Assembly (NCBI GenBank): GCA_026770705.1 | Contig: JANJGN010000026.1 | Span: 39,246,001 to 39,310,000 of the forward strand | DNA length: 64,000 nucleotides | Direction: 5' to 3' | Origin: Isurus oxyrinchus | Lineage: Eukaryota | Shown: positions 18,396-60,950 of the stretch, piece by piece | Position numbering within the stretch: the stretch's first letter is position 1 | Layout: every line of letters starts with the position of its first letter | Program-made: the position numbers and the translations under genes | The notes under the pieces: model-generated | What the model was told of the DNA's origin: nothing | Database searches by the model: none | What the model saw: only the letters and a program-made list of their open reading frames with translations

Positions 18396-21300
18396 CTTTT
18401 GATATAAATTAAGAAAATGCCTTTTGCAGTGATTACTGATACAGGGTCTAGGGTAATATAAACTAAGACAGGGGCAAGTGCAGTGTTTACTCATACAGGT
18501 CTAGATTGATATAAACTGAGGCAGGGCGAAGTGCAGTGTTTACTGATATAGGGTCTAGATTGATACAAACTGAGGCAGGGCATAGTGCAGTGATCGCTGA
18601 TACAGGACTGAGATGAATATAAATCAGGACAAGTGATGAGGCAGTGATTCCTGAAACAAGATGTAGAGCATATAAGCTGAGACAGTGTCCATTGCTGTGA
18701 AAACTGTTACAGGGTCTATATCAATATGAGCTGAGATAGTGTCTAGTGTAGTGATTGCTGATACAAGGTCTGGATTAAGATAAACTGAGACAAGGCCTAA
18801 TACAGTGATTACTGATACAATGTCTAGATTAAAATAAACTGAGACAGGGTCAAGTGCAGTGATAACTGATAGAGGGTATAGGTTGATATAATCTGAGGCA
18901 GGCCATAGTACAGTGATTACTGATACAGGGTGTCAATCAATAAAAACTGAGACAGTGTCCATTGCAGTGATTACTGATACAGCATCTAGACCAATTTAAC
19001 CTGAGGCAAGGTATAGTGCAGTGTTTACTGGTACACGATTAGCAATAATATAAACTGAGACAACATCTAGTGCAGTGATTACTGATACAGGGCCTATATC
19101 AATTTACACTGAGATGGAGTCTAATGCACTGATTATTGATACAGGGTCAAAATTAATATAATTGAGACAGGGTCTTGTGCAGTGATTACTGATACAGGAT
19201 CTAGATCAATATAAACAGAGAGAGTCAAGTGCAGAAATTATTAATATAGGGTCTCAATTGATATAAACTGACACAGAGCATTTAGCGTTAATTACTGATA
19301 CAGGGCCTAGATTAATATAAACTGAGAGAGCGTCTAGTGCAGTGATTACTGATACAGAGTCTTTAATAATATAAACTGAGTCAGTCTCTCATGCTGTCAT
19401 TCCTGGAACAGGGTCTGGACTAATAAAAGCTGAGACGGGGCCCAGCGCAGTGATTACTGTTGAAGGGTCGAGGCTAATATGAACGGAGGCAGGGCCAACT
19501 GCAGTGATTACTGATAAAGAGTTTAGATTAATATAAATTGATTCAGCACCTAGTGAAGTGATTTCTGACACAGACTCTAGATTAGTATGAAGTGAGACAG
19601 GCTCTTCTGCAGCGATTATCGCTACCAGCTCTAGATTGATAAAAATTGAGGCAGGGCCAAGTGCAGTGATTACTGGTACAGGCTGTAGATTAATACAACT
19701 GATACAAGGTCTAGTGCAGTGATAACACATACAGGAGAGAGACCAATATAAACCAAGTTAAGGTGTAGTGCAGTGATTACTGATACAGTGGCTAAATCAA
19801 TATAAACTGAGACAGGGCCACGTACAGTGATTACTGATGCAGTGTCTAGGTTGATATAATCTGAGGCAGTCCATACTGCAGTAATTACTGATACAGGATC
19901 TATATCAAAATAAGCTGAGTTAGGTCTAAAGCAGTGTTTACTGATACAGGGTCTTGATAAATATAAAAGGATAGAGGGTCTACCTCACTGATTACTGATA
20001 CAGGGCCCAGACAAATATAAAATAAGACAGGGGCTAATGCAGTGATGACTGATACATGATTGAACTTAACATAAAATGAGACAGGGTCCATTGCAGTGAT
20101 TATTGAAACCCGGTCTAAATTAATACAAAATTAAATAGGGTCTATTGCTATGGTTAATGATACAGGGTCTAGATCAATTTAAACTGAGACAGGGTCTAGT
20201 GCACTGATTACTGATACAGGGTCAAAATTAACATAAGTGAGATAGGGTCTAGTGTGGTGATTACTGATAGTGTCTAGATTAACATAAACTGAGGCAGGTT
20301 CTAGTGCAGTAATTAGTGATACAAGGACTAGATTAATATAAACTGAGACAGGCTCTGGTACAGAGATAAATGATACAGGGTCATGATCAACATTAACCGA
20401 GACAGGGTCTAGTGCACTGATTACTGATACAGGGTCTAGATTGATTTAAAACCAATAACTGAGGCAGGATCTAGTGCAGTGATTACTGATACAGGATCTA
20501 GATCAATGCAAACTGATACAGTGTCTATTGCAGTGATTACTGATACAGGATCTAGATCAATGCAAACTGATACAGTGTCTATTGCAGTGATTACTGATAC
20601 ATGGTCTAGGTTGATATAAATGAGGCAGGGCCTACTGCCATGATTACTGATACAAGATCTAGACTAATATAAACTGAGACAGGCTTGAGTGAAGAGATAA
20701 CTGATACAGGACCTAGATCAATATTAACTGAGATAGGGTCTCGTGGACTGAATACTCATGCAGGGTTTAAGCTAATATGAACTGAGACAGGGCATTGTAC
20801 AGTGATTACTGATAGTGGGCCTGTATAAATACAAACTAGAACAGGGCTAGTGCAGTGATTACTGATACAGGGTCTGGACTAATATAAACTGAGATGGGGC
20901 CCAAAGCAATGATTACTGATACAGGCTCTAAATTAATATAAACTGAGGCAGGGCCTAGTGCAGTGATTACTAATACAGGGGCTAGATCAATATAAACTGA
21001 GATAGTGTCTTGTGCAGTTCTTACTTACACAGGGCCCAGATAAATATAAGCCAGGACAGGGGCTAGTGCAGTGATTACTGATACAGGGGCTAAATCAATA
21101 TAAACTGAGACAGGGCCTAGATCAATGATTATTATACAGGGTCTTGATTAATATAAAATGAAAGACGGTCTTCTGCAGTGATTACTGATACAGGGTCTAG
21201 ATTGAAATAAACTAAGGCAGGCAATAGTGAAGTGGTTACTGATTCAGGGCCCAGATAAATATACACTAGGACATGGGCTAGCGTGGTAATTACTGATACA

Positions 21301-24300
21301 GGATCTAGATCAACATAAACTGAGACAGTATCCATTGCTGTGATTATTTTTACAGGGCCTAGATCAATGCAAACTGATACAGTGTCTATTGCAGTGATTA
21401 CTGATACAGGGTCTAGATTAATATAAACTGAGACAGGCCCTAGTGCCGTATTTAATGATACAGGATCTAGACGAATATAAACTAAGACAGGCTCAAGTGA
21501 AGAGATAACTGATATAGAGCCTAGATCAATATTAACTGAGACAGGGCCTAATGCACCAATTACTGATATAAGGTCTAGATTAACATAAACTGAGAGAGGT
21601 ACTGGTGCAGTGATTGCTAACATAGGGCCTAGATTGATATAAACTGATATAGAGCATAGAGCAGTGATTACTGATAAAGGCTCTAGATTAATAGAAACTG
21701 AGACAGGGCCTGGTGCAGTGATTACTAAGACAGTGTGTTCATTAATATAAACTGAGACAGGCTCTATTTCAATGATTACTGATACAGGTCATGTCCAGTG
21801 CAGTTCTTACTGACACAGGGTCTAGATCAAAATAAACTGAGACAGTATCCAGTGAAATGATTCCTGATGCAGGATGTAGATGATAAAAACTGAGGCAGGG
21901 CATAGTGCAATGATTACTGATACAGGGTCTAGATTTCTATAGACCGGGGCAGGTCATAGCGCAGTGAATACTGATTCATACAAACTGGGACAGGATCTGG
22001 GGCAGTGATTACTGATACAGGGACTAGATAAAAATAAACTGACACTGTGTCCAGGGCGGTGATTACTGATACACGACCTGAACTAATATAAAATAAGACA
22101 GGGCCAAGTGCAGTGATTATTGATACATGGTCTTGACTAATACAAACTGAGATGGGGCCTGGTGCAGTGATTACTGATGTAGGGTGTAGGTTAATATGAA
22201 CTGAGAACTGAGACAGAGTATATTGCAGAGCTTACTGATGCATGGTGTGGACTACTATAAACTGAGTCTGGGTCTAGTGCGGACAAATATGATGCAGCTG
22301 ATGTCAATATTAACCGAAACAGGGTCCAGTGCAATGGTTACTGATAATGTACTTTGATTAATATAAACTGAAACTGTGTCCAGTGCAGTGATTAGTGACA
22401 CAGGTTCTAGGTTAATGTAAACTGAGTCAGGGCCTAGTGCAGTGATTACCGATACAGGGTCTGGATTAATATAAACTGAGACAGGGTCTAGTGCAGTGTT
22501 TACTGATACAGGGTCTAGATTAATAGAAAATGAGACAGGGCCAAGTTCAGTGATTACTGATACAGGGTCTAGGTTAAGATAACCAGGGACAGGGCCTCAG
22601 GCAGTGATTACTGATACAGGGCCTTCAGTAATATAAACTGAGACAGGTTCTATTGCAGAGATAACTGATACAGGGTCTAGAACAACATTAACTGAGACTG
22701 GGTCTAGTGCAGTGATTACTGATACAGTCTAGATTACGGTAATCTGAGTCAGGACCTAGAGCAGTGATTACTTATACAGGGTCTTGATTAATGTAAAACG
22801 AAAGAGGGTCTCCTGCAGTGATTAATGATACAGGGTCTAGTTTGAAATAAACTGAGGCAGGCCATTGTGCAGTAATTACTGACACAGGATCTCGATTAAT
22901 ATAAACTGAGGTAGGGCCAAGCGCAGCGATTATCAATCCAGGGTCTAGATTAATAGAAACTGAGGCAAATGCAGTGACTACTGATAAAGGGTCTAGATTT
23001 ATATAAACTGGGGCAGGGCATAGCACAGTGAATACTGATACAGGGATGAGATTAATACAAACTGAGACAGGATCTGGGGTAATGATTACTGATACAGGGA
23101 CTAGATCACAATAAACTGACACCATGTCAAGGGCGGTGATTACTAATAAATGGCCTGAACTAGTGTAAACTGAGACAGGGCCAAGTGCAGTGACTACTGA
23201 TACAGGGTCTTGTCTAATACAAACTGAGACAGGTCCTAGTGCAGTGATTACCGATTCAGGGCCTAGATTAATATGAACTGAGAACTGAGACAAAGTATAT
23301 TGCAGAGATTACTGATGCATGATGTGGACTACTATAAACTGAGTCTGGGTCTAGTGCAGAGAAATATGATGCAGGGCCGACGTCAACATTAACTGAGACA
23401 GGGTCCAGTGCAGATGTTACTGATACAGGGCCTTGATCAATATACACTGAGACAGTGTCCAGTGCAGTGATTAGAGACTTAGGACCTAGATTAATATAAA
23501 CGGAGTCAGGGCCTCATGCAATCATTACTGATATAGGGTCTAGATTGATATAAACTGCAGGAGGGCATTGTGCAGTGATTATGGAGACAGGGCCTGGATT
23601 AATATAAACTGAGACAGGGTCTAGTGCAGTGATGACTGATACAGTCTTGAGATTGATATAAACTGAGGTAGTGCATTCTGCAGTGATTACTGACACTGGC
23701 TTTAGATTAAGATAGATATAAATCAATATAAATGGAGACAGTCTCTACTGCAGTGATTACTGATACAGAGTCTAGATTGATATAAACAGTAACAGGGTGT
23801 AGTATAGTGATTACTGATACAGGGCCAAGATTAATATAAGCTGAGACAGGATCTAGTGAGTTATTACTGATAAAGGGACTATATTATTTTTTAATGAGAA
23901 AGGGTCTAGTCTCTGATTACTAATGCAGCATCTAGATTTTTATAAGCTGAGACAGGATCCAGTGCAGTGATTATTGACATAGGGCTTAGATTAATATAAA
24001 CTAAGGCAGTGCATATTGCAGTGCTTACTGATACAAGGTTGAGATTAATAGAAACTGAGAAAGGGCCAAGTGCAATGATTACTGATACAGGCTCTAGGTT
24101 AAGATAAACAGAGACAGGGCCTAAGGCAGTGATTACTGATACAGGGCCTTCACTAATAGAAACTGAGACAGGTTCTATCGCAGAGATGGAAATAGGTGGG
24201 AAAAGAAAAATCTATATAATTTATAGGGAAAAGAAAGGGAAAAAGGGGGAAACAGAAAGGGGGTGGGGATGGGGGAGGGAGCTCACGACCTAAAGTTGTT

Positions 24301-27023: not shown

Positions 27024-29704
27024 CTTTTCTTCTCCGCCGATGCTGCCAGACCTGCTGAGTTTTTCCAGGTAATTCTGTTTTTGTTTTGGATTTCCAGCAT
27101 CCGCAGTTTTGTTTTGTTTTTATCTATCGCAGAGATAACTGATACAGTGTCTAGATCAACACTAACTGATATGGGGCCTAGTGCAGTGATTACTGATACC
27201 AGCCTAGATTAATATAAACTGAGACAGGGCCTAGAGCAGTGGTTAATTACACAGGGTCTTGATTAATATAAAATGAAAGAGGGTCTTCTGCAGTGATTAA
27301 TGATACAGGGTCTAGGTTGAAATAAACTGAGGCAAGCCATTGTGCAGTGGTTACTGATGCAAGACCCATATAAATGTATTCTAGAACATGGGCTAGTGCA
27401 GTGATTACTGACACAGGATCTAGATCAATATAAACTGACACAGTGTCCATTGCAGTGATTATTGATACAGGGTCTCAATCAATGCAAACTGATACATTGT
27501 CTATTGCAGTGATTACTGATACATAGCCTTGATTAATGGAAACTGAGACAGGTTCCAGTGCCGTATTTAGTGATAGAGGATCTAGACTAATATAAACTGA
27601 GACAGGCTCAAGTTCAGAGATAACTGATGCAGGGCCTAGATAAATATTACCGGAAACAGGACCTACTACACTGATTATTTATCCAGAGCCTGGGTTAATA
27701 TTAACTGAGACAGGGCCTAGTGCAGTGATTACTAATACAGAGTCTAGATTGACAAATATTGAGACAGAGCATAGTACAATGATTACTGATACAGCATCTA
27801 GATTAATAAAAACTGAAAGAGGACCAGGTCCATTGATTACTGATACAGGGTCTCGAGATATTAACTGAGACAAGGTCTAGTGCAGTGATTACTTACACAG
27901 GATCTAGATTAATATAATCTGATATAGGGCCAAGTGCAGCAATTACCGAAACAGGATCTGGATTAATAGAAACTGCAGCAGGGCATTGTACAATGATTAC
28001 TGATACAGAGTCTAGATTAATAGAACCTGAGACAAAGTTCAGTGCTGTGTTTACTGATACATGGTCCTGATCAATATAAACTCAGACAATGACCAGTGGA
28101 GTGATGACTGATACAGGGTCTAAATTGATATAAACTGAGGCAGTACATAGTGCAGTGATTACTGATACAGGTCTAGGTTAGTATAACCTGGACAGGCTCT
28201 ACTGCAGTGATTACTGATATAGGGCCAAAATTAATATAAACTAACAGGATCTAGTGAGTTATTACTGATGAAGGGACTATATTAATTTTTAATGAGAAAG
28301 GGTCTAGTGCACTCATTACTAATGCAACATCTAGATTTTTATCAGCTGAGACAGGATCCAATGCAGTGATTACTGATATAGTGTTTAGATTAATAGAAAC
28401 TAATAAAAATAGAAAAGGGCCAAGTGCATTGATTACTGATACAGGCTCTAGGTTAAGATAAGCTGAGACAGGGTGTGGTGCAGTGATTACTGATCAATTA
28501 TCTGGACTAATATAAAGTGAGACAGGGCCAAGTGCAAGATTTATTTCATCGGTGGCGCCCATATCCCAAGAATGAATTAAAGTGATGCAAAATACTGTAG
28601 ATTCTGGAAATCTAAAGCAAAACAAAAAAAAAAACACACTTAGCAGGCCTGTGAGCATCAGTTCGGAGAGAAACAGATCAAATTTTCAGGTCGATGGCAG
28701 GTGCAAAATCTCCTTTGGTACCATCCTTGAGAGCAGAACTGTTCGCCCCACTATCCCATACCAATATTCATTCTTTAAGTAAAATCAAATATTATCTGGT
28801 CATTTTTCACAGCTCTATTCGTGGGATCTTGCTGTGTACAGATCACCCAATGCGTTTCCAACATTACAGCTGTGTATAAACTACTACAAAACTACGTTGA
28901 CAAGTTTTAAGGGTCGTGAGCATCATTCTATAAATGCACATTATTTCTAAATGTTAACATTTTAAAATGATAGCTGCAATATGTTGAAAACCCAGAGATT
29001 AATATGATTGTAGGTCAGTCCTCTGGCTGCCGTTTTAACTTGTCCAGTTTAAAGGGGTTAAATCTTCAATCAAATTGACATTCAATGGAATCCCAACCTG
29101 TTCAAAGATTGTGATAGTAGATCTTTTGGAATTAAATCCTTAATTTAAATGTATTTTTATTTATTTGAAATAAATAACATGTGTTCTTATGGATGTTAAA
29201 GAAGTTTCCATTCATTTTGTACCAACTGTCAATATTCTTAAAATAAAACCTTGTTTTGAGTTAAAACCAATCAATAAGTGTCTGTGTTTATCTGGTTTTG
29301 CTGCAATGAACACTTCATTGAAACCAGTGAGGCCTTTATGTAAATAAACACAGAAATAGAAGTCCCAGATTAGATTCTGGAGGGACAAAAACACAACAAA
29401 TATTTCCCCACCAACACAGAAATAGAGCCAAACATGCAAATACATCAACCGATTGCAGTAGCAATTTTTTTGGGCAATTTTTTAAATTAGTTATATGAGC
29501 ATTATGTCACGATGATATCTATGTTCAGAATTAAGATAGACTCCCACTTATCATGAAATATAATGGCATGGCAAATGTGTTTGTAGAGATTTCCTGTACC
29601 CTCTCCCTCTCTGTCTCTTTCTCTTATTTGGTTCTTTGTTTTGTCTCTCCACCATGGGTCACCAGTAGCGAGGATTTGATGCCGCAATGAAATGCCGAAG
29701 GATC

Positions 29705-30045: not shown

Positions 30046-30634
30046 AGGCCCGGTGTCAATATTGCACTCGACCGTGACCCTGCCCATGTTAATATTACAC
30101 TAGACCCCGTCAGTGTTTGCATTACACTAGACCCTGTCTCAGTTTATATCAAACTCATATGTTTCTGTTTATATTATACTTGACATATCTCTGTTTATAT
30201 TATACTCGATATGTCTCTGTTTATATTGCACTCGATGCTGTCTCTGTTTATAATACACTAGATGCTGCCTCTGTTTATATTACATTGGACCCTGCTTCTG
30301 TTTATATTACTCTAGATCCTGTTTTTGCTTCTATTAAACAAGGCCTTGTCTCTTTATATTACATTTGACATGTCTCTGTATATATTCATCTAGACCTGTC
30401 TCTGTATTGAAATATGCATTGTCTCAGTTCTGCGCTAGATCATGTTTGCAGTAATTCCATTAGAACCGGCCTCAGTTATTACTGCACTGCACAAGTCCAA
30501 TAATGTGGACATTGGTTGAGATGGAAATGGTGATGATCAGACATCAAGATGGTGGGAACGTTAATGATGCAAAAAAATCTTTCGAAAACAATTATCATGG
30601 GTGCCTATTTAGACGTCGTGACTTGCACTTTGTT

Positions 30635-36630: not shown

Positions 36631-36649
36631 GTAAAGGCTGAGAAACATA

Positions 36650-36992
36650 CATAATTATATATACCAATTATTATCAATTCACGAAGGTAAATAATTATAT
36701 TGACGAATTACCATCAATTCACAAAGATAAATAATTATATTCACCAATTGGCATCAATTCACAAAGATAAATAATTATATTCACCAATTATTATCCATGC
36801 ACAAAAATAAATAATTATATTCAACAACTATCATCAATTCACAAAGATAAATAGTTACATTCACCAATTATCATCAACTCACAAAGATAAATAGTTACAT
36901 TCACCAATTATCATCAACTCACAAAGATAAATAATTATATTCATCAATTATCATCCATTCACAAAAATAAATAATTGCATTAACCAATTATT
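36650..36992 (+). repeat. 40-bp AT-rich tandem repeat, about 8 units
   Basis: ACAAAGATAAATAATTATATTCACCAATTATCATCAATTC recurs at exact 40-bp spacing (36681, 36721 ... 36961). Confidence 0.95.
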
Positions 36993-40327: not shown

Positions 40328-40632
40328 GTGTCCAGTCGGAGATTGTGTTGACTCAGCCAGAGGCAGAGACCGGGCGTCCCGGAGGCACCCTGACACTGAC
40401 CTGTAAAACCAGCGGCTTCAATCTTGGCAGCTATTGGATGAACTGGGTCCGACAGGTTCCTGGACAGGGGCTGGAATGGCTCCTTAACTACTATAGTTCA
40501 TCCAACAACAACTACGCCCCAGGAATTAAGAATCGATTTACTGCGTCCAAAGACACTTCAAGGAGCATCTTCTCCTTGGACATGACGAGCCTGAAGACTG
40601 AAGACACCGCCATCTATTACTGTGCAAGAAAC
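40328..40632 (+). CDS. IGHV: IgH variable segment, germline, open
   Basis: Acceptor TTTACAG; (G)[69 protein letters not shown] with canonical Cys, Trp and Cys. Confidence 0.98.
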
Positions 40633-41039: not shown

Positions 41040-41119
41040 AGTTTTTGTGCGGGTGTATTTCACTGTGATACCACAGCGGGTCACAGTGCTGTGCATAGCG
41101 ACATCCTCATACAAAAACC
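41040..41119 (+). other. IGHD: D1 segment (coding 41068-41081, ATACCACAGCGGGT) with 5' 12-RSS and 3' 22-RSS
   Basis: AGTTTTTGT-12-CACTGTG [D] CACAGTG-22-ACAAAAACC; all three frames are open. Confidence 0.95.
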
Positions 41120-41412
41120 TCAGAGAAGGAGTTTGTTTAAATTCGTGATCTCTAACACAGCAGGAACGACAAAGAAAATGATAGTTAAATAACATAATGG
41201 GTCGAGGTTTGCAAAAAGGTATTCCACTTTGTTCGTAGTGACGGACATGCCAAATCTGCAGAGATTTTGAAAGTATTCCAATCACATTTATAAATATAAT
41301 GACCAGCACAGGCTGGAATATCTCACTGATTCATTCTTAAGCGAGTCGGAATCGGGTTTTTGAGAAGGCAGTGAACTTAAATCTCTATATTTTACAGTGA
41401 ACAGTCTGCCGC

Positions 41413-41481
41413 AGTATTTGACATGGTGTGTCTCACTGTGATATACTGGATGGCACAGCAGTTACTGTCAATACAAAAACA
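41413..41481 (+). other. IGHD: D2 segment (coding 41441-41453, ATATACTGGATGG) with 12/12 RSS
   Basis: AGTATTTGA-12-CACTGTG [D] CACAGCA-12-ACAAAAACA; all three frames are open. Confidence 0.93.
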
Positions 41482-41850: not shown

Positions 41851-41898
41851 ACGCTATGGACTACTGGGGACAAGGGACCATGGTGACGGTGACTGCAG
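41851..41898 (+). CDS. IGHJ: IgH joining segment AMDYWGQGTMVTVTA
   Basis: WGxG motif; phase-1 donor G|GTAAGA. Confidence 0.97.
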
Positions 41899-44864
41899 GT
41901 AAGAACCATGCACTTTTTAAAAACTGTACTATTTAAGTCTTTGCTTTACATTTTTGTCTATTTTAATAATTCACTCGTTGACTGAAATGTGGGTTTGGTG
42001 GATTCTGTGTGCAGATTTTTTTACAATGCTTCATGCGATTCTGCTGAAATTGAGTTATATAATTCCGCTGTGTCTTGACAAAAAAGTGTTACTGAGGGAT
42101 TGAGTCCCTGGTTGTTGTGATTTGGTGTTTATCTGCTGAGGATACTGTGTGACCGGGCTACTTGAAATGTCTAACGTTTGTTAAAACAGTTTGACGTTTC
42201 TGCAATGTTTAATCTCGGTGACATCTAATGGCTGCGGGTTTTACCATCTGTTACACAGGGTTTAAATATGTCTGAAATCAAGCCTAATTTAAACAAAATG
42301 TGCTTAAGTTTCAATGTTAATTTATTGAACATGTTCCGCCTACTCACAATGCTGGTGCCATTATTCCATATTTCTGTTTAGTTTAATTATTCATTCATTT
42401 GGTGACGATCGAGTTGTCTGGATTCGTTGTTGAGTTTTTCTTGCAATGTGACATTGAATTCTGTTGGAAGTATTTGTTCAATTGAGCTGCTTCTCCATGA
42501 AACAGGTTTCAGCCCCTCAGTGATGTGATTCTGGTGTATTTTCTGCTGAGGAGATTGTGTGTCTGGGTGACTTTGAATTAGTAGAATTTGTGAAACGGTT
42601 TGGCGGTTCTGCATTGTTTCTGCTTTGTTTAAACTCGGTGACATTGAGCGGTTACACGTTTTGTGGTTGAATGGAAACAGTCTACGCGTTTGTATCTGCT
42701 TGAAGCGCGATTGTAGGCAGAAAACAGGTTTCAGAAATGGGGAAAAAGCGTTTAACGATGCCTTAGAACATTTTGTTTTTATTTTAAGTGATAATTGCAA
42801 ATTAAACTAAATCATGGATAATGACGCTCATTCAGAACATAACTCGGTACTGCAATCAGAAACTATATAATTAACAAGTTTTCAAATTGTAAAGTAAAAT
42901 GAATATAATTCAAACAATTATAATATGGTAATATTTCTCCATATTGACGGAACAACTTTCATATTAACATAATTGCTCATTAATCGTCTTTCACAATTCT
43001 GCTGTGCACTGCGCACTATTAAGATGATAGGAAAAGTTTTTAGGCTGGAAACATTTTGTGATTATGTATTAAAAAAATCAATAAGAATATACTGACTCTA
43101 CAGAATTGTTCAGATTCACAAGAGATTTTGAATTATTTTTTTAGATCCCTGATAACCTTTATCTTAAAATCTTAAAACCTTATCTTAAAGACTTAAAGAG
43201 GAGTTTGACATTGCAGTTTGGCAATATGTGTATCCGTTTATTACAACCTTTCTGTGCAACCAGAGCCGCATTATTCCTTCAATGTCATTGGGATTTGGAT
43301 AGCGAGATAATTGTCACTAGTTTAATCTTAAACAGTTTTTTGGGGGTAGAATTTGCTGGCAGTAAATGAATTGTTCTTACATTTTCTTGAAATGTAGGAA
43401 GGTGCAGACTGCATATGAATAGAGATTGACAAGTAAAAGCTTGAAATTCGAACAGATTAATTTAATTGCAAACATTAATATTAGTTTTGAGCTTAATAAC
43501 AATACCTCCCATAGTTGTGCTGGACACAGAATAGAATTATAGGGGAAGAACAGATTATATCTGAGATTCACGCTTAATTCTTATTAAATGTTAAATTGAA
43601 GAACAAAATCTCGAATCCTTTTGCTGGTTATATTTCAGTGGCGCAGATGATCTGAATGAATTGTTCTCATCAAGTTTTATACTGATCAATTTGGATCTTC
43701 TTTCAATGAACAACATATTTAACCATTAAATTATAGGGATTGTTATCTAGGAAGCACTTTTATTGTTAAGTAACTGCTAGGAACATTTTTTACATATAGC
43801 TTGGAATTAAGACAAGTTTGCTTTAACCAACAGATGGTGTTACAGCCCATCGACAGTTAATGTGATGTGACCCCCGGCCATATTTGAAAATATTTAAAAT
43901 ATTCCACTCATAAAGTCATCGTGTGAATTACTCGATGAGAATAGATGGAATTTATGATTTCTCAATGCGTTCAGAAACACGCATAGTTTACAATTTTGTA
44001 CGTTAAAACAGAGCAGTGGAAGTAAAAGTAAAATAGTAAATAATGATTAGATTTAAGTAAAATTGATATACTTCTCTGAATGTTACCATCTGGTAATTTC
44101 AAGTTTATTGTTCAACATTGTTTCAGTGTCAGGTTGATTTAAATAAACCCCAATTATTTCACAAAGTACCAGGGAGAAACAAGTTTTCAATTATTGAAAA
44201 CCATTTTTAATATTATAGAGTAGAAATCAGCTAACAAGAAAATGAATTGACAATAACAAGATAATTAACTTACAAGATAATATTAGTGAAAATTAATTCA
44301 ACATAAATAAACTCCAACAATTAAGTAGTCATTATAATGAATGCAAAATCTCAAAGGGTGGAGAGAATTTTTAATTGTATCCAAAATGAATTTAGAAAAG
44401 AATACTTCCTTAGTCAGCTGTGCTCAGCTCGATAAGGTGTTTCGCCTTGATGATTTTCTTGATTATATTTATATCTACAATCACATCAAATCAGTGGGTA
44501 ATCGATTTTCAATGTGACTATTTCCTGATTTGTTTAATTCTTACCTTGTCATTGAGTTTCTGTTACGGACATGAAATTACCCTGAATCTGTCATATTTAA
44601 TGTGCTCATTTTCAGGGTAACTTAAATCTTACATTGTTTGGAGATTTGAGGCAGACAGGGAGAATTAAATGGAGTTCAAAGGGAGTTTTAAAATGAAAAT
44701 CAGATTAATTTCAAAGAAGTTATAGAATAATTGTAGTAAATTGACCATTGATCAATTAGAATCAAACAGCTTGAATAAAATGGACAGATTGAACAGATCT
44801 ATCTGCTGGGAACTCACTTGTTGCATCATTTATGTCTGTTCTGTGCCTGTGCGCGTGGTCACTA

Positions 44865-46094: not shown

Positions 46095-46585
46095 GACACT
46101 CAGTCTCTTTACCACACACCCCCACTCGCTCACTCTCTGCATCACACACGCTCTCTCTCTCACACACACGTTCACTCTCTCTCTCTCTCTCACGCATTTT
46201 CTCTGACAGACACACACTGTCTCTTTCTCTCTCTGTCTCACACACACACACACAAACATACTCTCACATTCTCTCTTTCACACACACAACCTCTCTTTAA
46301 CACGCCCACACTCTGTCTCACACATTGCCTCTCTTTCACACACACTCTCACACATACTGTCTCAACTACACACACTCTCATGCACGTGCACACTGTCTCT
46401 CCAACACACACATGCACTATTTCTCACACATGCACTCTCACACACTCATTCTCTCTCACACACACACACACACACTTTCTGTCTCTGTCTCTCTCTCTCT
46501 TTCCCTCTCAAAAACACACATACACTTGCATGCACTCTCTCTCTCTCTTTCTCACGCACACACACACATTCTCACATACATATGT
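46095..46585 (+). repeat. CA/CT compound microsatellite
   Basis: Seen directly. Confidence 0.9.
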
Positions 46586-47154
46586 GGGCTGAAAATATTA
46601 ATTTCAGAATGAAAATCCGTTAAACTGCATGCATGTTCATTGTTCCATTTCTGAAGTCCTTTTGTGTAAAATGCAATTACACACGTGACATCACTATATA
46701 TGTGGAGAATTTCCAAGTGTTGAACTAAACACAAAGAAACAAGAAAATGGGAGGGATGTGATGGAGACCACGGTCGCCTGGATCCCCAATACTGGTGCAC
46801 ACTTGGTGCAAGATGCCTGCACGGCCCATCCTGGTTTTGCTGTAACCTTCCCCTCCAGTCCCTCAGTCTGCCTATTCATGCACTGACATGGGTTTCTCAA
46901 AGAAAGGAATTGGCATTATAGCAGCTGGCCAGTGCTCTACACTGCTGCCTGACTTTACACAGCCGGTGTTCCTGAAAGCTGATCAATCTGGAGAATCGGG
47001 ACAGGATCAATGGAGAGGAAGAGGAGGAGGTGGAGGTGGTGGAGCCGAATGGAGGAGCCCCCAGCTCGTCTGTGGACAACAGGCAATGGAAAGCTGAGCC
47101 AGAGCAGAAAATCATCTGGAGAAACATCACCTTGATGAGCCTGCAGACCTGGGC

Positions 47155-47985
47155 ACCCTCACTACCCACAATCACTCACCCTCATTCTCTCACTCACCCT
47201 CACTACCCATAATCACTCATCCTCACTCAATCTCACTCACTCACCCTCACTCACTCGCCATCACTCATCCTCACTCCCTCACCCACCCTCACTCACTCAC
47301 CCTCACTCACTCGCCCTCACTCCCTCCATCACTCATCCGCCCTCCCTCACCCACCCATGCTCACTCACCCTCACTCACTCACACTCACTCACCCATCACT
47401 CACGCACCCTCACTCACTCTCTCTCACTCACCCTCACTCACCCTGTCTCATTCTCACTCACTTACTCACCCTAACTCACTCACTCTCACTCACCCTCACT
47501 CACCTTTCCCTTCCGAGCCTCATTCTCACTCAATTACCCACCCTAACTCACTCACACTCACTCACTCTCACTCACCCACAGTCACTCACCCAGCCTCATT
47601 CACAGTCATTCACCCACCCTCACTTATCCACCCTTACTCATCCACGCTCACTCATCCTTACTCAAACTCACTCATTCACCCATCCTTATTCACCTACCTG
47701 CACTCACAGTCAATAACTCATCCTCCCCACCCTCACACACCCAATCACCCTCACTTACATACCCACCCTCACACACCCAGCAACTCGCACTCACCCACTC
47801 ATCCACCCTCAGTCAATCACCCACCCTCACTCACTCATCCATTCTTACTCACCCACATTCAGGCACCCACCCACGCTCACTCATCACTCACCCACGCACC
47901 CTCACTCACTCAGCCACCCGCCCTCGCTCTGTCACTCAGCCACCCTCACTTTGTCAACCATGCACAGGCTCACTCACTCGATCAC
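47155..47985 (+). repeat. C-rich low-complexity repeat (CTCA / CTCACC units)
   Basis: Reiterated CACTCACCCTCACTCA, with almost no G on the + strand. Confidence 0.9.
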
Positions 47986-48379
47986 TTTTCCTAAATCGGC
48001 GTGTGGGAGGGCGGGAACGAGAGACCTGGAAGAGAGGCCTGAGGCCTAGCAGTGCCAGAAAGTGGAGGATGGCCGAAGGGAGCGATGAGCGTCGGTCGAA
48101 AGGGCAGAGAGGCGAGGAGAAAGTGCAGAGAGCCTGGGGGAAAAGGCAGAGAGCCGAGGGGGTTGGGGTGGAAGGGCAAAGAGCCGGGGGGTTTGGGGGG
48201 AAGGGAAGAGAGTCGGGAAAAAGGGCAGGGATCCAGCAAAAAGTGCATAGAGATTGGGCAAGGGTCAGCGAGCCCGGGAACGGTCAGCGATCCAGTGGAA
48301 AAGGTCAGAGAGCCGAGCGAAAGCGCAGAGACCCGTGGAGTAAGTGCAGAGAGCTGGGGTAGAAAGCACAGGGAGGCGG

Positions 48380-50100
48380 GGGGGTGGGGTGCAGTGCAGA
48401 GAGGCAGGAGGGGGAAAGGGCAAAGAGGCGGCAGGGGGAAAGGGAAACGGCAGAGAGGCGGGGTGGAGGGCTGAGAGGCGGGGGGGCAGTGCGGAAAGGG
48501 CAGTAAAGCGGGGGGCAAAGGGCAGAGAAGCGGGAGGGGGAAAGGGCAGAGAGGCAGGAGGGGGAAAAGGCAGAGAGGCAGGAGAGGGAAAGGGCAGAGA
48601 GGCAGGAGAGGGAAAGGGCAGAGAGGCAGGAAGGGGAAAGGGCAGAGAGGCAGGAGGGGGAAAGGGCAGAGAGGCAGGAGGGAAAAAGGACAGAGAGGAG
48701 AGGAGGAAAGGGCAGGGAGGCCGGAGGAGGAAAGGGCAGAGAGGCCGGAGGGAAAAAGGGCAGAGAGGCGGGAGGGGGAAAAGGGCAGAGAGGCGGGAGG
48801 GGAAATGGGCAGAGAGGCGGGAGGGGAAATGGGCAGAGAGGCCGGAGGGAAAAAGGGCAGAGAGGCGGGAGGGGGAAAAGGGCAGAGAGGCCGGAGGGAA
48901 AAAGGGCAGAGAGGCGGGAGGGGGAAAAGGGCAGAGAGGCGGGAGGGGAAATGGGCAGAGAGGTGGGAGGGGAAATGGGCAGAGAGGTGGGAGGGGAAAT
49001 GGGCAGAGATGCGGGAGGGGAAATGGGCAGAGAGGTGGGAGGGGGAAAGGGCAGAGAGGCAGGAGGGGAAATGGGCAGAGAGGTGGGAGGGGAAATGGGC
49101 AGAGAGGTGGGAGGGGAAATGGGCAGAGAGGCGGGGAGAAAGTGCTGAGAGGCGGGAGGGGGAAAGGGCAGAGAGGAGAGGAGGAAAGGGCAGAGAGGCG
49201 GGAGGGGGCAAAGGGCAGAGAGGTGGGAGGGCGAAGGGCAGAGAGGCGGGAGGGGGAAAGGGCAGGGAGGCGGGAGGGGAAAAGGGCAGAGAGGCCAGAG
49301 GGAAAAAGGGCAGAGAGGCAGAAGGGTGAAAGGGCAGAGAGGCTGGCGAGAAAGGGAAGAGAGGCGAGGGGTAAAGGGCAATGAGGCAGGAGGGGCAAAG
49401 GGCAGAGAGGCGGGTGGGGCAAAGGGCAGAGAGGCGGGTGGGGGGAAAGGGCAGAGAGGCGGGAGGGCAAAGGGTAGAAGGGCCAGAGGGGGAAAGTGCA
49501 GAGAGACGGGAGGGGGAAAGGGCAGAGAGACGGGAGGGGGAAAGGGCAGAGAGACGGGAGGGGGAAAGAGCAGAGAGGTGGGAGGAGGAAAGGGCAGAGA
49601 GGCGGAGGGAGGAAAGGGCAGAGAGGCAGGAGGGGGAAAGGGCAGAGAGGCGGGAGGGGGCAAGTGCAGAGAGGAGGGTGGGGGTAAAGGGCAGAGAGGT
49701 GGAGGGAGGAAAGGGCAGAGAGGCAGGAGGGGGAAAGGGCAGAGAGGCGGGAGGGGGAAAGGGCAGAGAGGCAGAGGGAGGAAGGGGCAGAGAGGCAGGA
49801 GGGGGGAAGTGCAGACAGGAGGGTGGGGGTAAAGGGCAGAGAGGCAGAGGGAGGAAAGGGCAGAGAGGCAGGAGGGGGGAAGTGCAGACAGGAGGGTGGG
49901 GGTAAAGGGCAGAGAGGCTGCAAGGGAAAGGGCAGAGAGGCAGGAGCAGGCAAGAGCAGAGAGGTGGGGGGGGAAGGGCATAGAGGTGGAGGGAGGAAAG
50001 GGCAAAGAGGCGGAGGGAAAGGGCAGCGAAGCGGGCAGGGGGGAAGGGCTGAGAGGTGGCGGAATGGGGAAGGGCAGCGAGGTGGGCAAAAGTGCAGAGA
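48380..50100 (+). repeat. G/purine-rich 23-25-bp tandem repeat
   Basis: Consensus GGGCAGAGAGGCGGGAGGGGGAAA, about 70 units. The long Pro/Leu and Gly/Arg ORFs here are artefacts of the repeat. Confidence 0.95.
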
Positions 50101-50554
50101 GCCGGAATACAGTGGGGACATCCGAGCGAAAGCATTTGTGAGCCGAGGCTCCAGGCGCCCTGGGCCCCATTCTCTCTCTCTCTCTCTCTCTCCCTCATTG
50201 CATCTCCTCCTCCTGAAATCCTTTCCTTTCCTGGGGAAAGGCGATAAGTGCCTAGGAGAGAAAGGAGACAATGTCTCAGTGCGCTCCCCCCCCTCACCCC
50301 GGCCCCACCGGCTTCCTACACCTTCCTCCAGCGGGTGTTCACTGCCCCTCCAATCACAACCTGTTTGTCTCCCACTTTTCCTGCTGATAGGCCCACTAGT
50401 CAGGCTATCAGCAGCTAACGGGTCGAAGGCTCGCCTGAGATTGGGGGAGCATCTCCTTACAGATATCTTCAACTCCACTTACCTGCCTTACTAGCATTTT
50501 GAACAACGGCTCCGGGGGCCAGACAGAGGGGCTTCGGGGGCCACAATCCAGTGA

Positions 50555-52155
50555 AGGGACATGGATTGGACAAGCCCATAATAAAGGAAAATAAGGAAAT
50601 GGGCAGAGAAGTTGGCCAAATACTTTGGCCTTAACGAGGTGGTTACTAAAATGGCAGAGGCATTGGTTTTAATTTTCCAAACCTCCCGAGATTCTGGAAC
50701 AGTCTAATCAGGTTGGAAAATAGAGAATGAGGCTTTCTCTTAAAGAAAGGAGGGAAAGGGAAAGCAAGAAACTACAGGCCAGTTAGCTTAACATCTGTCA
50801 GAGCGAAAATGTTTTAATCTTTTCTTAAAGAGTATATCACGGGTCACCAAGAAAATCCAAATGCAAATATGGAGATCCATCATAGTTTTGTGAAAGGGAA
50901 ATCAATCACGTTTGGCTGATTTATTTGAGGCCTTTGAAGTAAGAAGGAACATGAATAAAGGAGAACCTGTGGGTGTGCTATACTTGGACTTCAAGAAGGC
51001 ATTTGACAAAGTGGCACGTCAAGGTTATTACACAAAATAGTGGTGTCAGCAGTAACATTTCAGCATGGATAGAAGTTTGGTTAGCTAACAGGGATAAATT
51101 GGTTATTTTAGATTGGCAAGATGTGACAAGTGGAGTGCCACAGGGATCAATGCTGCGGCCTCAACTATTTACAATTTATAACAATGACTTGAATTAAAGG
51201 ACTGAATGAATTTGCTAAATTTGCTGATAACACAAAATAGATAGCAAAGTAAATGGTGAAGAGAGGTTAAAGATCAGCAAAGGGATATCGATAGGTTAAG
51301 TGAGTGGGCAAAGAAAATGACAGATGGAGTATAATGTGGGAAAATATAAACTTGTCCACTTTGGCAGGAAGAATACAAAAGCAGCGTATTATTGAAAGGG
51401 AGAGAGATGGCAGAACCCTGAGGTACAGAGGGATGTGGATCCCTTGGTGCATGAATCACAAAAAGTTATAATGCAGGAACAGCAAGTGATGAGGAAGGCA
51501 AAGGGAATGTTGGCATTTATCACAAGGGGAACAGAATATAATGGAAGGATATTTTGCTACAGTTTAACGGGGTGGCGATGAGACCTCGTCTGAATTACTG
51601 TGTACAGATTTGGTCTCGTTTAAGAAAGGATATAAAAGCATTAGAAGCTGTTCAGAGAATGTTCATTCAAATGATACTGGGAGGTGTCGTCGGTTATCTT
51701 ATGAGGAAAGTTTGGATAGGCTGGGCCTGTATCCATCGGAGTTTAGAAGAATAAGAGCTCATTTTATTCAAACATATAATATCCTGAGGGGAATTAACAG
51801 GGTGGATGCTGAAAGGATGTTTCCCCTTGTGAGAGAGACTAACGATAGGGAACACGGTTTAAAAATAAGAGGTCTCCCATTTCAGACAGAAATGGGGGGA
51901 TTTTATTTTTTCTTTCAATGACTCGTGAAACTTTGGAACTCTCTTCCCCAGAGAGCGATGGAGGAGGAGTCATTAATATTTCAAGGCAGAGGTAGAGAGA
52001 TTCTTCATTGACAAGGGAGTCAAAGGTTAGCGGAGATTAGGCGGGAATGTGGAGTTCACGCCACAATCGGATCAGCTATGATCGGTAGTGAATGGTGGAG
52101 GAGGCCCCAGAGGCCGAATGGCCTACTCCTGCTACTGATCCGCACGTTCACATGT
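50555..52155 (+). mobile_element. CR1 LINE fragment, degraded
   Basis: NYRPVSLTSV, VTSGVPQGSML.PQLFTIY.NDL, KFADN and WNSLPQ remnants. Confidence 0.88.
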
Positions 52156-52711: not shown

Positions 52712-53011
52712 CGACACCGTCTTCGCCCACTCTCTACAGCCTGGTCTCCTCCTGTCAGCAACACAACCCCGACGGCTCCGTCACCTACGGCTGTTTGGCG
52801 ATGGACTACTCCCCAGAAATCACCAGCCTGACCTGGAAGAAAGATGGGCAGTCGATCGCTACTGGATTTAAGACTTACCCGTCAGTGAGAAACCAAAAGG
52901 GAACTTTCACCCTGAGCAGCCAGTTAACCATCACCGAGTCAGAGGGAGAATGCAGCAAAATCAAGTGTGAGGTTCGATACAGCGGCTCAGACAAGAGCAT
53001 TGAAATGCACT
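52712..53011 (+). CDS. IGHM: IgM constant exon Cmu1
   Basis: Acceptor TTCCCAG, donor T|GTAAGT, 300 nt. [52 protein letters not shown]. Confidence 0.96.
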
Positions 53012-53225
53012 GTAAGTGTTGGGGAACCTGTGAGAAACAGAAAGGCTGTGATTGACCTGTATAGAGTCTTGGCTGTAACGCATTTATAATACTCTGCATT
53101 GTTCTGATCCCTGGAAATTCCAAGTTCGTGTCCATTGACCGCAAAGAGCCTGTTAAAATATAAGAACTTATTGTATCTGTTATCAATTTCTTCTGCAAGA
53201 AATGGCTAACCTTTGTTTTTTGAAG

Positions 53226-53540
53226 GTCCTCGTCCTGACTTACCTCCAACTGTTCTCCTCACCGTGAGTTCCAGGGATGAAATCACAACCAAAAAATTTG
53301 CAACCGCCGTCTGTTCAATCATCGATTTCCGTCCGAAGCCAATCACCGTGAAGTGGCTGAAAAATGGACAACCCATGAATTCAGGAATTGTCACCTCTCC
53401 CGCCTTTGAAATGAACGGGAACTTCTCGGCGACCAGTCGGCTGCAAGTCTCCGCTGGGGAATGGTTCAGCGATGCGGTCTATACCTGTCAGGTCACTCAC
53501 CAAGGGGTCACCCAAAGTCGAAACGCCACCAAGTGTGAGG
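53226..53540 (+). CDS. IGHM: IgM constant exon Cmu2
   Basis: Phase-1 AG/GT boundaries. [41 protein letters not shown]. Confidence 0.96.
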
Positions 53541-54164
53541 GTAAGAAATACAAACTGTGGAAGCAATAGATCATTCTGCACACCGGTGTTAATCAAATCA
53601 GGAATTTATTGGAGTTAGTAGAAAGCACGAAACAACATCTAATTTACTATCATATAGTTGGTGTTTCATTCCGATGTAAGGGCTGCATTCGGATTATTCA
53701 CCATTCAGGATTTGATCACATCACGTCTCTGCACTGACGTCATAGAGTGTGTGAGGTGGACTTGATATCAGCTTTACCTTGAGTCAGCTGATCATATTTG
53801 GAGAGGCAGAAGGTGTCTGGAACCCTTCACTGGTAACAGCTTCGAGACAGAGTGTTGGAAAGTGCACCCACCCTTTTTATAAAACATATTTCAGTCCTGC
53901 ATTCCAGGGCCCAGGAATGATACATTTGTATTGGGAATGGGGCAACGCAGATTTATGAGAATGTTACCGGGGCTGAACGACTTAAATTATGAGAACAATT
54001 TACACAGACCAAGCTGGTTTTCCATTGTGTAAAGAAGATTAAAAACGATAGTTAGAGGTTGATATGTCCAAGGTGCTTTATTCTCCTTCAGGGAGTGAAG
54101 ACTGAATACTGCTGTCCTGCTTCTGAAAGTGAAACTTTGGTTGATTTTCATTTCTGTCTCACAG

Positions 54165-54476
54165 GTGATCACCAATGCCTCAACGATCCCACAATTACTC
54201 TATTGCCACCTCCAATAGAACAAGTCTTACTGGAGGCGACCGTGACCTTAACCTGCATCGTTTCTAATGCTCCTTATGGAGTCCTCGTGTCCTGGACACA
54301 AGAGAAGAAGCCTTTGAAATCAGAGATTGCCGTCCAACCGGGAGAGGATCCCGACAGCGTGGTCAGCAACGTAAACATCTCGACACAAGCCTGGCTGAGT
54401 GGGGCTGAGTTCTACTGCGTGGTGAGCCATCAGGATCTGCCGACTCCTTTAAGAAGTTCCATCCACAAGGAACCAG
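54165..54476 (+). CDS. IGHM: IgM constant exon Cmu3
   Basis: CACAG acceptor, G|GTGAG donor. [42 protein letters not shown]. Confidence 0.96.
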
Positions 54477-55190
54477 GTGAGCGGTGAGATTGAAGCAATA
54501 AGTTGTTCAATGTGTCTATTTCCAGTGTAAATGTAAGGATCAATATTTACTATTCAGTGTATTCATGGTCTACTCTGATTAGCAATTTCGCCAACGAAAC
54601 GCCCTGGGCCTGTGGACTTTCAGGAGGAAATTGATAAGTAGATGAATGAACAATGAATTGAAGGCTGTGCCATTGGGTTTAGATGAAGCAAGATGGGAGG
54701 AGCCTGGTGCGAAGCTGAAACACCAACATGGACCAGTTGGGCAGAATGGCCTGTTTCTATGCTGTAAACTTTGAGAAACTTTCTCGTCCAACCCTATAAG
54801 TTCTCAAGGAAAAGGATTGTGCCACCTCTGCTCCGAGCTGGAAAGCCGGACAGATCCCAAACTATTTTATTTATTAATTCATGGGATGTGGGCGTCGCTG
54901 GCTGGGCCAGAGTTATTGCCCATCCCTAATTGCCCTTGACAAGGTGTTGGTGAGCTGCCTTCTTGAACTGCTGCAGTCCATGTGGTGTAGATACACCCAC
55001 AGTGCTGTTAGGAAGGGAGTTCCAGGATTTTGATTCAGCTATAGTGAAGGATCGGTGATATATTTCCAAGAAGTGGATAATGAAAAACCTTAATATTCAT
55101 CACAAAACACGTTACTCTCACATCTAACCAGTGGTTTCATTGTCTATGAATGTATCCAGTTTATTAACATTTATTGTACATTTTCTGCAG

Positions 55191-55582
55191 TTAAAGACCC
55201 GCGGGAACCGTCCGTGTCTGTCCTCCTGCCCTCGGCAGAACATGTCTCCGCTCAGGGATTCGTCTCCCTCAGCTGCTTAGTGACAGGTTTCTCCCCGCGA
55301 GAGATTTTCATCAAGTGGACCGTCAATGACAAGCCGGTGAATCCCGGAAACTACAAGAACACCGAGGTGGTGGCAGAGAACGGCAATCGCTCCTTCTTCA
55401 TGTACAGCCTGTTATCCATTGCAGCGGAGGAGTGGGCCAGCGGCGCTTCTTACTCCTGTGTGGTGGGACATGAAGCGATCCCCTTGAAGATCATCAACAG
55501 AACGGTTGATAAATCCAGCGGTAAACCGAGTTTTGTGAACATTTCCCTTGCACTGATGGACACCGTTAATTCATGTCAATGA
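55191..55582 (+). CDS. IGHM: IgM Cmu4 plus secretory tailpiece; internal donor at 55520/55521 for the membrane form
   Basis: [48 protein letters not shown]|GTAAAC. The tail [19 protein letters not shown] carries an N-glycan site and the penultimate Cys. Confidence 0.97.
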
Positions 55583-55609
55583 GAATCTCTCGGTTACATT
55601 TCAAACTTC

Positions 55610-56024: not shown

Positions 56025-56545
56025 CCCCATCAGAGAGACGGGGAAGGGAAATTGTTACCCCATTGCACCTCCACCTCCCCAACAGAGAGAGGGGGAGCGG
56101 AAATTGCTAACCCACTGTACCCCGACTTCTCCAACAGAGAAAGGGGAGGGGAAATTGTTAACCCAATGTACCCCCACTTCCCCAGAGAGAGTGGAAGGGG
56201 ACATTGTTAAACCACTGCACCTTCACTTCCACAACAGCAGGTGGTGGTGGGGGGGAATTGTTTAACCACTGTACCCCCACTTTCCCAACAGAGAGAGGGG
56301 AAGGCAAACTGGAAAACCACTGTACCTCCACTTACCTGAGATAGAAAACTGAAAGGAAAATTTTAAGCCAATTTTATCTCCACTTGCTAAACAAAAAGAC
56401 AAGGAAGGCCATTGGTTAACCCGGTGTGTCTCCACCTTCTCAACAGAGAGAACCGAAAGGGAAATTGCTTAGACAACCAGACAGAGCAAAACTATTAACT
56501 CACTGGACCCTCAGTCCCCTAGTAGAGAATCTGGAAGGGAATGGG
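56025..56545 (+). repeat. ~50-bp minisatellite, degrading 3'
   Basis: Repeated CAGAGAGAGGGGGAGGGGAAATTGTTAACCCACTGTACCCCCACTTCCCAA. Confidence 0.8.
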
Positions 56546-58598: not shown

Positions 58599-58726
58599 AT
58601 TCCACAGACCGCATCTGGATTGAAGACTCTGAGGATGATAACGGCAACATCTGGACAACTGCTTCCACATTCATCATCCTGTTCTTCCTGAGCATTTTCT
58701 ACAGCACTGCCGTCACTCTGGCGAAG
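58599..58726 (+). CDS. IGHM: IgM transmembrane exon TM1
   Basis: (D)[42 protein letters not shown] with CART motif; TAG acceptor, AAG|GTGAGA donor. Confidence 0.95.
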
Positions 58727-58864
58727 GTGAGAAGATTCAATCCACTCACACTTCAAACTGACAGAAGCGGTTTGAAATATCTCTCAATGTTTCATTGATT
58801 AGAACTCTAACATAAGTGTCCCAGATTATAAACATCTGCTTCATTATTTCATCCTCTTTTACAG

Positions 58865-60514: not shown

Positions 60515-60950
60515 ACAACTGAACTCACTAAGCATCTCCCCAGGGATCCTCTCTTCCTGTTCCATTCCGTCTGATACCATCCTCCTGAATTCACTGAGCA
60601 TCACCCCAGGGGTCCTCTCTCCCTGCTCCATTCCCTCTGACACCATCCTCCTGAAAATCACCCCAGGGGTCCTCTAACCCTGCTCCATTCCCTCTGACAC
60701 CATCCTCCTGAACATCACCCCAGAGATCCTCTCTTCCTCCTCCATTACCATCCTCCTGAACTCACTGAGCATCACCCCAGAGATTCTCTCTCCCGGCTCC
60801 ATTTCCTCTGATACCATCCTCCTGAATTCATTGAACATCACCCCAGGGATCCTCCCTTCCTGCTCTATTCCCTCCATTACCATCCTCCTGACCTCTCTGA
60901 ACATCACCCCAGGGATCCTCCCTTCCTGCTCCATTCCCTCTGATACCAGC
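60515..60950 (+). repeat. 54-66-bp minisatellite, about 7 units
   Basis: Repeated CCATCCTCCTGAA(CTCACTGAG)CATCACCCCAGGGATCCTCTCTTCCTGCTCCATTCCCTCTGATA. Confidence 0.9.

Follow-up and report, generated by a model that had tools for sequence, protein, structure and literature searches.

Is the long G-rich repeat that lies between the joining segment and the first constant exon of a shark IgM gene a switch region, or does it owe its presence there to something else? Isotype switching between clusters has been reported in sharks (Zhu et al. 2012; Zhang et al. 2013), and shark loci are described as lacking switch regions, both according to four reviews (PMC4279169, PMC4588147, PMC8201067, PMC5192425). 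The repeat is contained in a 64-kb window of Isurus oxyrinchus DNA (GCA_026770705.1, JANJGN010000026.1, 39,246,001-39,310,000, plus strand), to which all positions below refer unless another contig is named. The initial annotation of this window had proposed a convergent or primordial, recombinogenic switch-like element. No published description of the tract was found in the literature searched, which consisted largely of open-access main texts.

The host gene is a germline (unrearranged) V-D-D-J-Cmu1-4-TM cluster on the plus strand, as revealed by RSS scanning, translations and Pfam V-set and C1-set matches, which confirms the assignment to a shark IgM gene with the tract in its JH-Cmu intron. 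The VH exon (40330..40632) has an open frame followed by a 23-bp RSS. Two RSS-flanked D segments occupy 41068..41453 (D1 at 41068-41081, D2 at about 41442-41453), and the scan recovered both D1 sites and the D2 3' site. The JH segment (41851..41899), the Cmu1-Cmu4 exons with the secretory tail (52712..55583) and the TM exon (near 58600-58727) follow. Measured from the J end at 41899 and the Cmu1 start at 52712, the tract lies 6.5 kb 3' of J and 2.6 kb 5' of Cmu1, which is the place of S-mu, 5' of the first constant exon. The V-D-D-J-C organization is shared with the shark loci for which switching has been reported; a tie of the tract to that process would be hypothetical. Tandem arrays are common around this cluster, since further minisatellites (40-bp AT-rich, 51-bp and 66-bp) are present at 36643-36991, 56025-56333 and 60519-60948. 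Upstream of the cluster we also observed 27/54-bp tandem arrays of up to 5.7 kb in both orientations (18425-24177, 27122-28536, 5886-6158 and 30087-30405), and a related unit is present upstream of locus L100.

The core of the tract (48396..50086, plus strand) is a 24-bp G-rich minisatellite with the consensus GCAGAGAGGCGGGAGGGGGAAAGG. TRF gave a period of 24, 70.5 copies, 81% matches and a score of 1888, in agreement with the approximately 70 copies of a ~24-bp unit noticed initially. More degenerate 20-21-bp units occur on both edges, and the array reaches about 48100 and 50115; those of the 5' edge (48100..48395), delimited by the split of the units and by an nhmmer match, are older and resemble the G-rich segment of the transposon described below. 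The 1691 bases of the core comprise 955 G, 537 A, 150 C and 49 T, that is, 88% purine and 56% G, so the description of a nearly all-purine, G-clustered tract stood. Its mean G4Hunter score of 1.41 is that of the top G4Hunter stretch in the window, and it holds 48 G runs of four or more together with 27 non-overlapping four-G-run motifs (loops up to 12). Like mammalian S-mu, the tract lies in the J-C intron, extends over kilobases (1.7 kb here), is repetitive and bears its G clusters on the non-template strand.

By its place, length and skew the tract looks like a switch region; by its AGCT content and distribution it does not. The core contains no AGCT, 98 RGYW and only 1 WRCY, which supports the earlier remarks that palindromic AGCT is essentially absent and that AID hotspot cytosines lie mostly on the template strand. 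RGYW (GGCA) had been ascribed to each unit; this is mostly correct and slightly overstated, since of the 71 units 59 contain GGCA and 67 contain RGYW. The zero for AGCT is what base composition predicts (0.76 expected from 300 shuffles), and WGCW is not enriched either (9 vs 10.1 by shuffle). On the non-template strand, 17 WRC were counted vs 45.7 by shuffle, and 120 cytosines lie in GGC. Across the tract-bearing family the median density of AGCT is 3.0 per kb, vs 2.7 in the introns of the second IgM family, whereas working synthetic switch regions carry 4 per 80 bp, as given in PMC4245955.

The intron is transcribed as part of the gene, and its non-template strand is 56% G in the tract, so R-loop or G4 formation is predicted as a side effect of transcription. 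The tract, transposon-derived as described below, might then be an accidental fragile site, in which R-loops or G4 stall the polymerase, draw some AID-initiated breaks and bias the sites of inter-cluster switching in this IgM family, without selection for that effect. A G content of 46% suffices for long R-loops in mouse B cells (PMC4245955), and that of the tract is higher; its high G4Hunter score and four-G-run motifs come with a polarity that is always sense, and switching between clusters is reported for sharks (PMC4279169, PMC4588147). However, the displaced strand carries few AID hotspot cytosines, as the single WRCY, the deficit of WRC and the many GGC cytosines indicate; there is no paired AGCT for double-strand breaks, the tract is 6.5 kb beyond J, and germline exchange points are not enriched in it, as detailed below. 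We consider such a fragile site unlikely.

The array is enclosed by a dispersed non-autonomous hAT-type transposon and lies over the element's own G-rich segment of about 220 bp. The remnant of this MITE occupies 46108..50578 on the plus strand, its 5' end being lost here. It begins with a CA/CT microsatellite (46108..46600), followed by an internal unique segment (46600..47157) that is found at two non-Ig sites too (81% identical to L122) and by a C-rich TCAC-type simple repeat (47158..47990) with a skew opposite to that of the G tract. Beyond the array, the 3' part (50116..50565) contains a CT microsatellite, a CCAATCA inverted pair (about 50341-50451) and the subterminal GGGGGCCAC, and the 3' terminal inverted repeat (50566..50578) shares 11 of 13 bases with the family end and is perfect in several paralogues. 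A broken LINE reverse-transcriptase fragment (50579..52150), identified from its frames and showing very high contig depth, adjoins the transposon end; Pfam gave no match on this fragment, which we take from its motifs to be CR1. The order of CA microsatellite, unique segment, C-rich repeat, G tract, inverted CCAAT pair and LINE fragment recurs in nearly every first-family cluster. A Pfam six-frame scan of the 46600-47201 part of the element returned no match. A Harbinger origin of 46600-47157, suspected by eye, had no Pfam match and was dropped on finding the hAT-type ends.

A pattern search with the motif 3' of the tract matched four non-Ig sites. At three of these lies a complete element, 1.0-1.2 kb long, bounded by the 13-bp inverted repeats CAGGCTTGTCCAA and flanked by 8-bp duplications. 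Exact copies of the 13-bp end number 860 + 863 in the genome, compared with 12 + 4 for the reversed control. The family is dispersed, with 3175 first-look candidates from one copy, of which the 40 scored lie on many chromosomes and on both strands. Of the 8 flanking bases, 6 or 7 are the same on both sides in six of nine inward-facing pairs (5, 3 and 2 in the others) and in six of seven further copies, amounting to 12 of 16 full-length non-Ig copies, and the target duplications resemble NTCTAGAN; at the Ig site the right-hand duplication is unrecoverable. An nhmmer profile of seven non-Ig copies matches 47817-48245 (E 4.5e-39) and 50067-50576 (E 2.2e-50), with an inverted match at 50451-50341. 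The two main matches share profile positions 729-838, which correspond to the element's G-rich segment, and the array lies between them. A caveat in the initial annotation, that the CpG-rich flank near 50.52 kb could belong to a non-autonomous DNA transposon, was thus well founded, since the motif is the subterminal part of an element whose 3' end closes at 50578.

The element combines short terminal inverted repeats, an 8-bp target duplication and dispersed copies in which no coding frame was found. We assign it to the hAT type because the inverted ends and 8-bp duplications match the hAT features listed in PMC3014272, which treats the Anolis hAT-HT/hobo non-autonomous families, vertebrate hAT MITEs. 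Like those, the shark element has inverted ends starting CAGG, a duplication of the NTCTAGAN type, a length of 0.7-5.5 kb and many copies on both strands. Unlike them, its ends are without an autonomous partner at the flanks checked (none of these ends paired at 11 flanks, out of 34 genome matches to the hAT transposase domain PF05699), and the Ig copy lacks the 5' end and a visible right duplication. Four hAT dimerisation-domain matches lie in long open frames of 668-698 aa (C7:84481401, C11:16494230, C30:23107855 and C31:20391929) and are possibly domesticated or intact transposases.

It had been suggested that such a transposon could have carried the minisatellite in. This could not be upheld as put: the array likely grew in place from the G-rich segment of the element, and no finished array would have been brought in. 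In the non-Ig copies this segment measures 143-540 bp with a median of 220 (measurable in 13 of 19), vs a median same-anchor distance of 1909 in the Ig loci (41 of 62 loci). In two of the 19 non-Ig copies a 20-bp G-rich unit is repeated 17 and 23 times, respectively, and other copies of the family hold other private arrays, which argues that the element is prone to array growth. In the small sample of 19 non-Ig copies with the segment, its expansion goes no further than about 0.6 kb; a different repeat of the element family attains 0.77 kb, and the Ig arrays are much longer than either. AGCT declines from 5.9 per kb in the non-Ig source segments to 4.4 at the array edges and 2.2 at the array centres, so growth diluted this motif. 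Minisatellites born in mobile elements, including Alu-, B1-, MaLR- and MITE-derived arrays, are well known (PMC6947457). The shark array is like them in its head-to-tail units, its homology to a short internal segment of the element, its older degenerate edge units and its variable copy number. It is unlike them in that a long array was likely multiplied about 60-fold by host cluster duplication and not by transposition, and it is therefore confined to one gene family.

The distribution of the tract was assessed from a Cmu1 search, in which 150 of 413 candidates were scored. Two IgM families were seen among these 150, a first of 61 rows with 80-100% identity, mostly on C26, and a second of 50 rows with 64-72% identity. 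We compared the 10-kb upstream stretches of the remaining 60 rows of the first family, of 40 out of 50 rows of the second and of the split pseudogene L101, as well as those of 10 IgNAR-like, 2 IgW-like and 7 light-chain-like loci. The IgNAR label derives from PDB 4q97 as the best single-stretch match of L102, and the IgW and light-chain labels are our presumption. The tract is found in 57 of 61 first-family clusters, in the sense orientation in all, with a length of 323-3446 bp (median 1643 bp) and at least 1 kb in 53 of the 57, although many contigs off C26 are possibly second haplotypes, which would inflate these cluster counts. It was seen in none of the 40 second-family loci compared (of 50 listed; J reached in 35). 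Nor was it seen in the 10 IgNAR-like and 2 IgW-like loci, or in any of the 19 non-IgM Ig loci overall, light-chain-like ones included; J is unlocated in the IgNAR-like loci and in one IgW-like locus, so their introns may be incompletely covered.

An exact two-unit pattern gave 170 matches in the 4.98-Gb genome and 0 for the reversed control. All 170 fall in a first-family J-Cmu intron and all are sense (125 + 16 forward, 29 reverse), 154 being in the compared introns and 16 in one further copy located where a contig ends. The 24-mer thus occurs nowhere outside the first IgM family. A 24-mer scattered genome-wide was rejected on these matches, and a looser purine-spacer pattern yielded 4, all at family loci. 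The same place and polarity, which the initial annotation had suggested looking for in other clusters, is thus a property of the first family and does not extend to the second family or to the IgNAR/IgW-like loci. Scattering in random orientation, named there as counter-evidence, does not apply to the 24-mer, but a single origin with cluster duplication explains this as well. Unlike S-mu, which precedes donor and acceptor isotypes, the tract is limited to one IgM family, has a transposon origin and is known here from germline DNA alone.

The first-family loci, about 60 related IgM clusters in both orientations, lie on C26 at about 24-40 Mb and on C140, C151, C152, C210, C242 and C301; the second family, of about 50 clusters, occupies C20, C38, C42, C49, C100 and others, near the IgNAR-like loci. 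L057 (C26:36584435-36584695) has a Cmu1 without its first 12 codons and no family J-C intron within 10 kb, and is probably a displaced fragment. At C26:34567843, 37546431 and 32312663, and at several V matches of 40-46% on C26, C140, C152 and C210, V exons lie among the IgM clusters with no corresponding Cmu1 among those scored; they are possibly orphan V segments or another isotype.

How the tract came to be shared was addressed with a Cmu1 tree built from the last 420 bases of 68 rows (L057, L060 and 32 second-family rows left out). The element-free loci L055 and L058 fall outside a 58-row clade (support 98/92), in which 56 of 58 members carry the tract. The two exceptions are L034, with a 7-kb deletion, and L101, with an unexpanded segment plus an inverted copy. 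L101 keeps both transposon ends, of which the window retains only the 3' one, and its homology to L055 ends at the start of the L101 element 5' end, after an 8-mer like the family target. Since L058 is deleted across the insertion site and LINE sequence has taken the place of the right junction, the empty site is deduced from one junction. In a second species, two contigs (X6 record 13 and X8 record 18) run across the boundary between the transposon end and the LINE, and X8 record 17 covers the tail of the tract, so the insertion predates the split from that species. One insertion likely accounts for all Ig copies, and the tract is, judged from these comparisons, younger than the split of the two IgM families. 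On this evidence the common place and polarity were inherited and did not arise independently. In the pseudogene L101 (oriented 5100-5850; C152 about 1172800-1173500), an inverted duplicate comes after the G-rich segment, in place of a long tandem array, and could form a 0.4-kb fold-back with it.

These findings refute the proposal of a primordial switch region homologous to tetrapod S-mu, because the basal clusters are element-free and the tract is absent from the second family. Such homology could appeal only to the J-Cmu intron position and the G-skew, while the tract derives from a dispersed transposon, is younger than the split of the shark's two IgM families, and amphibian S regions are AT-rich; we regard it as hardly conceivable.

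In our view the tract is quite probably a passenger, namely a minisatellite inside a hAT-type transposon that grew after a single insertion and was spread by cluster duplication, with no selected role in switching. In the order that we infer, the element would have inserted into the J-Cmu intron of one ancestral cluster, and host DNA beside its ends would have been lost as LINE fragments arrived. A 20-bp unit and then the central 24-bp variant may have grown through slippage or unequal exchange, of which the latter would be favoured by about 60 near-identical neighbouring clusters, and units would have been gained and lost continuously. The spread was likely through duplication of whole IgM clusters.

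The unusual length of the arrays and the tract tail of the second species leave room for an incidental or co-opted use in B-cell switching. The hAT-derived minisatellite could have become a convergent, switch-like, break-focusing region that channels AID-driven VDJ/C exchange among about 60 clusters, which we judge improbable from the sequences at hand. It is also quite improbable that the array has been selected for promoting recombination between first-family clusters. Selection of this kind would suit the growth from a source segment of about 0.2 kb to 1-3.4 kb in 53 of 57 clusters, the retention in nearly the whole clade and in the second species, and the confinement of every exact match to this intron in the sense orientation; yet place and polarity are explained by the single origin, the source segment expands at non-Ig sites too, and growth moved away from AGCT. 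Moreover, with no copy in the second-family and IgNAR/IgW-like loci compared, the tract cannot pair isotypes, and all its partners are of the same isotype. Open V and Cmu1 frames are found both with and without the tract, those of L034, L055 and L058 being examples without it. The shortest or unexpanded tracts include broken genes (L048, L101), and L039 has Cmu1 stops yet a long tract.

The tract had also been called recombinogenic, for which the germline gave no support. Among 46 loci in 9 groups, 5 of 27 collapsed exchange points fall in the tract, or 2.5 per kb vs about 2.8 per kb overall, the highest density being that of the CA microsatellite with 5 breakpoints in 0.5 kb. The tract as a germline recombination hotspot was rejected; site incompatibility, calculated from the 26 usable loci out of 61, was 0.285 across the tract vs 0.263 on the same side. 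This proxy is crude, as repeats misalign and haplotigs are possible, and it says nothing direct on B cells. In six of 25 near-identical cluster pairs the divergence on one side of the tract is sharply different from that on the other, which suggests that frequent germline exchange makes new V-C pairings, to which haplotigs or misassembly may contribute. The pairs L003/L004, L005/L006, L012/L013 and L015/L016 are near-identical on the C side and 2-3% apart on the V side, with breakpoints through the J-Cmu intron.

As the evidence stands, the tract is an ordinary transposon-borne minisatellite, and it cautions that an S-like appearance and a common position in many shark clusters can stem from one insertion plus cluster duplication. 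It also provides a natural experiment within one genome, with about 57 IgM clusters carrying the tract and a few close relatives and about 50 second-family clusters without it, which permits a direct test of whether the junctions of inter-cluster switching in sharks gather at G-rich repeats in introns. If they did, this would show one way in which switch regions can arise out of mobile DNA, with consequences for how switching is targeted in sharks; if the tract were a convergent switch-like region, it would be a living example of S regions arising from mobile DNA.

In five read runs, which we guess to be RNA, the C-region word share is 0.23-0.47, a value that we do not take as a sign of expression. 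G-rich peaks in six second-family introns were considered as possible tracts and rejected from the one that was read, L075, in which the peak belongs to an unrelated inverted insertion of about 3 kb without tandem units, presumably retroelement-like. These six loci (L075, L076, L088, L096, L098 and L099) form a second-family subgroup with a common pair of G-rich and C-rich peaks.
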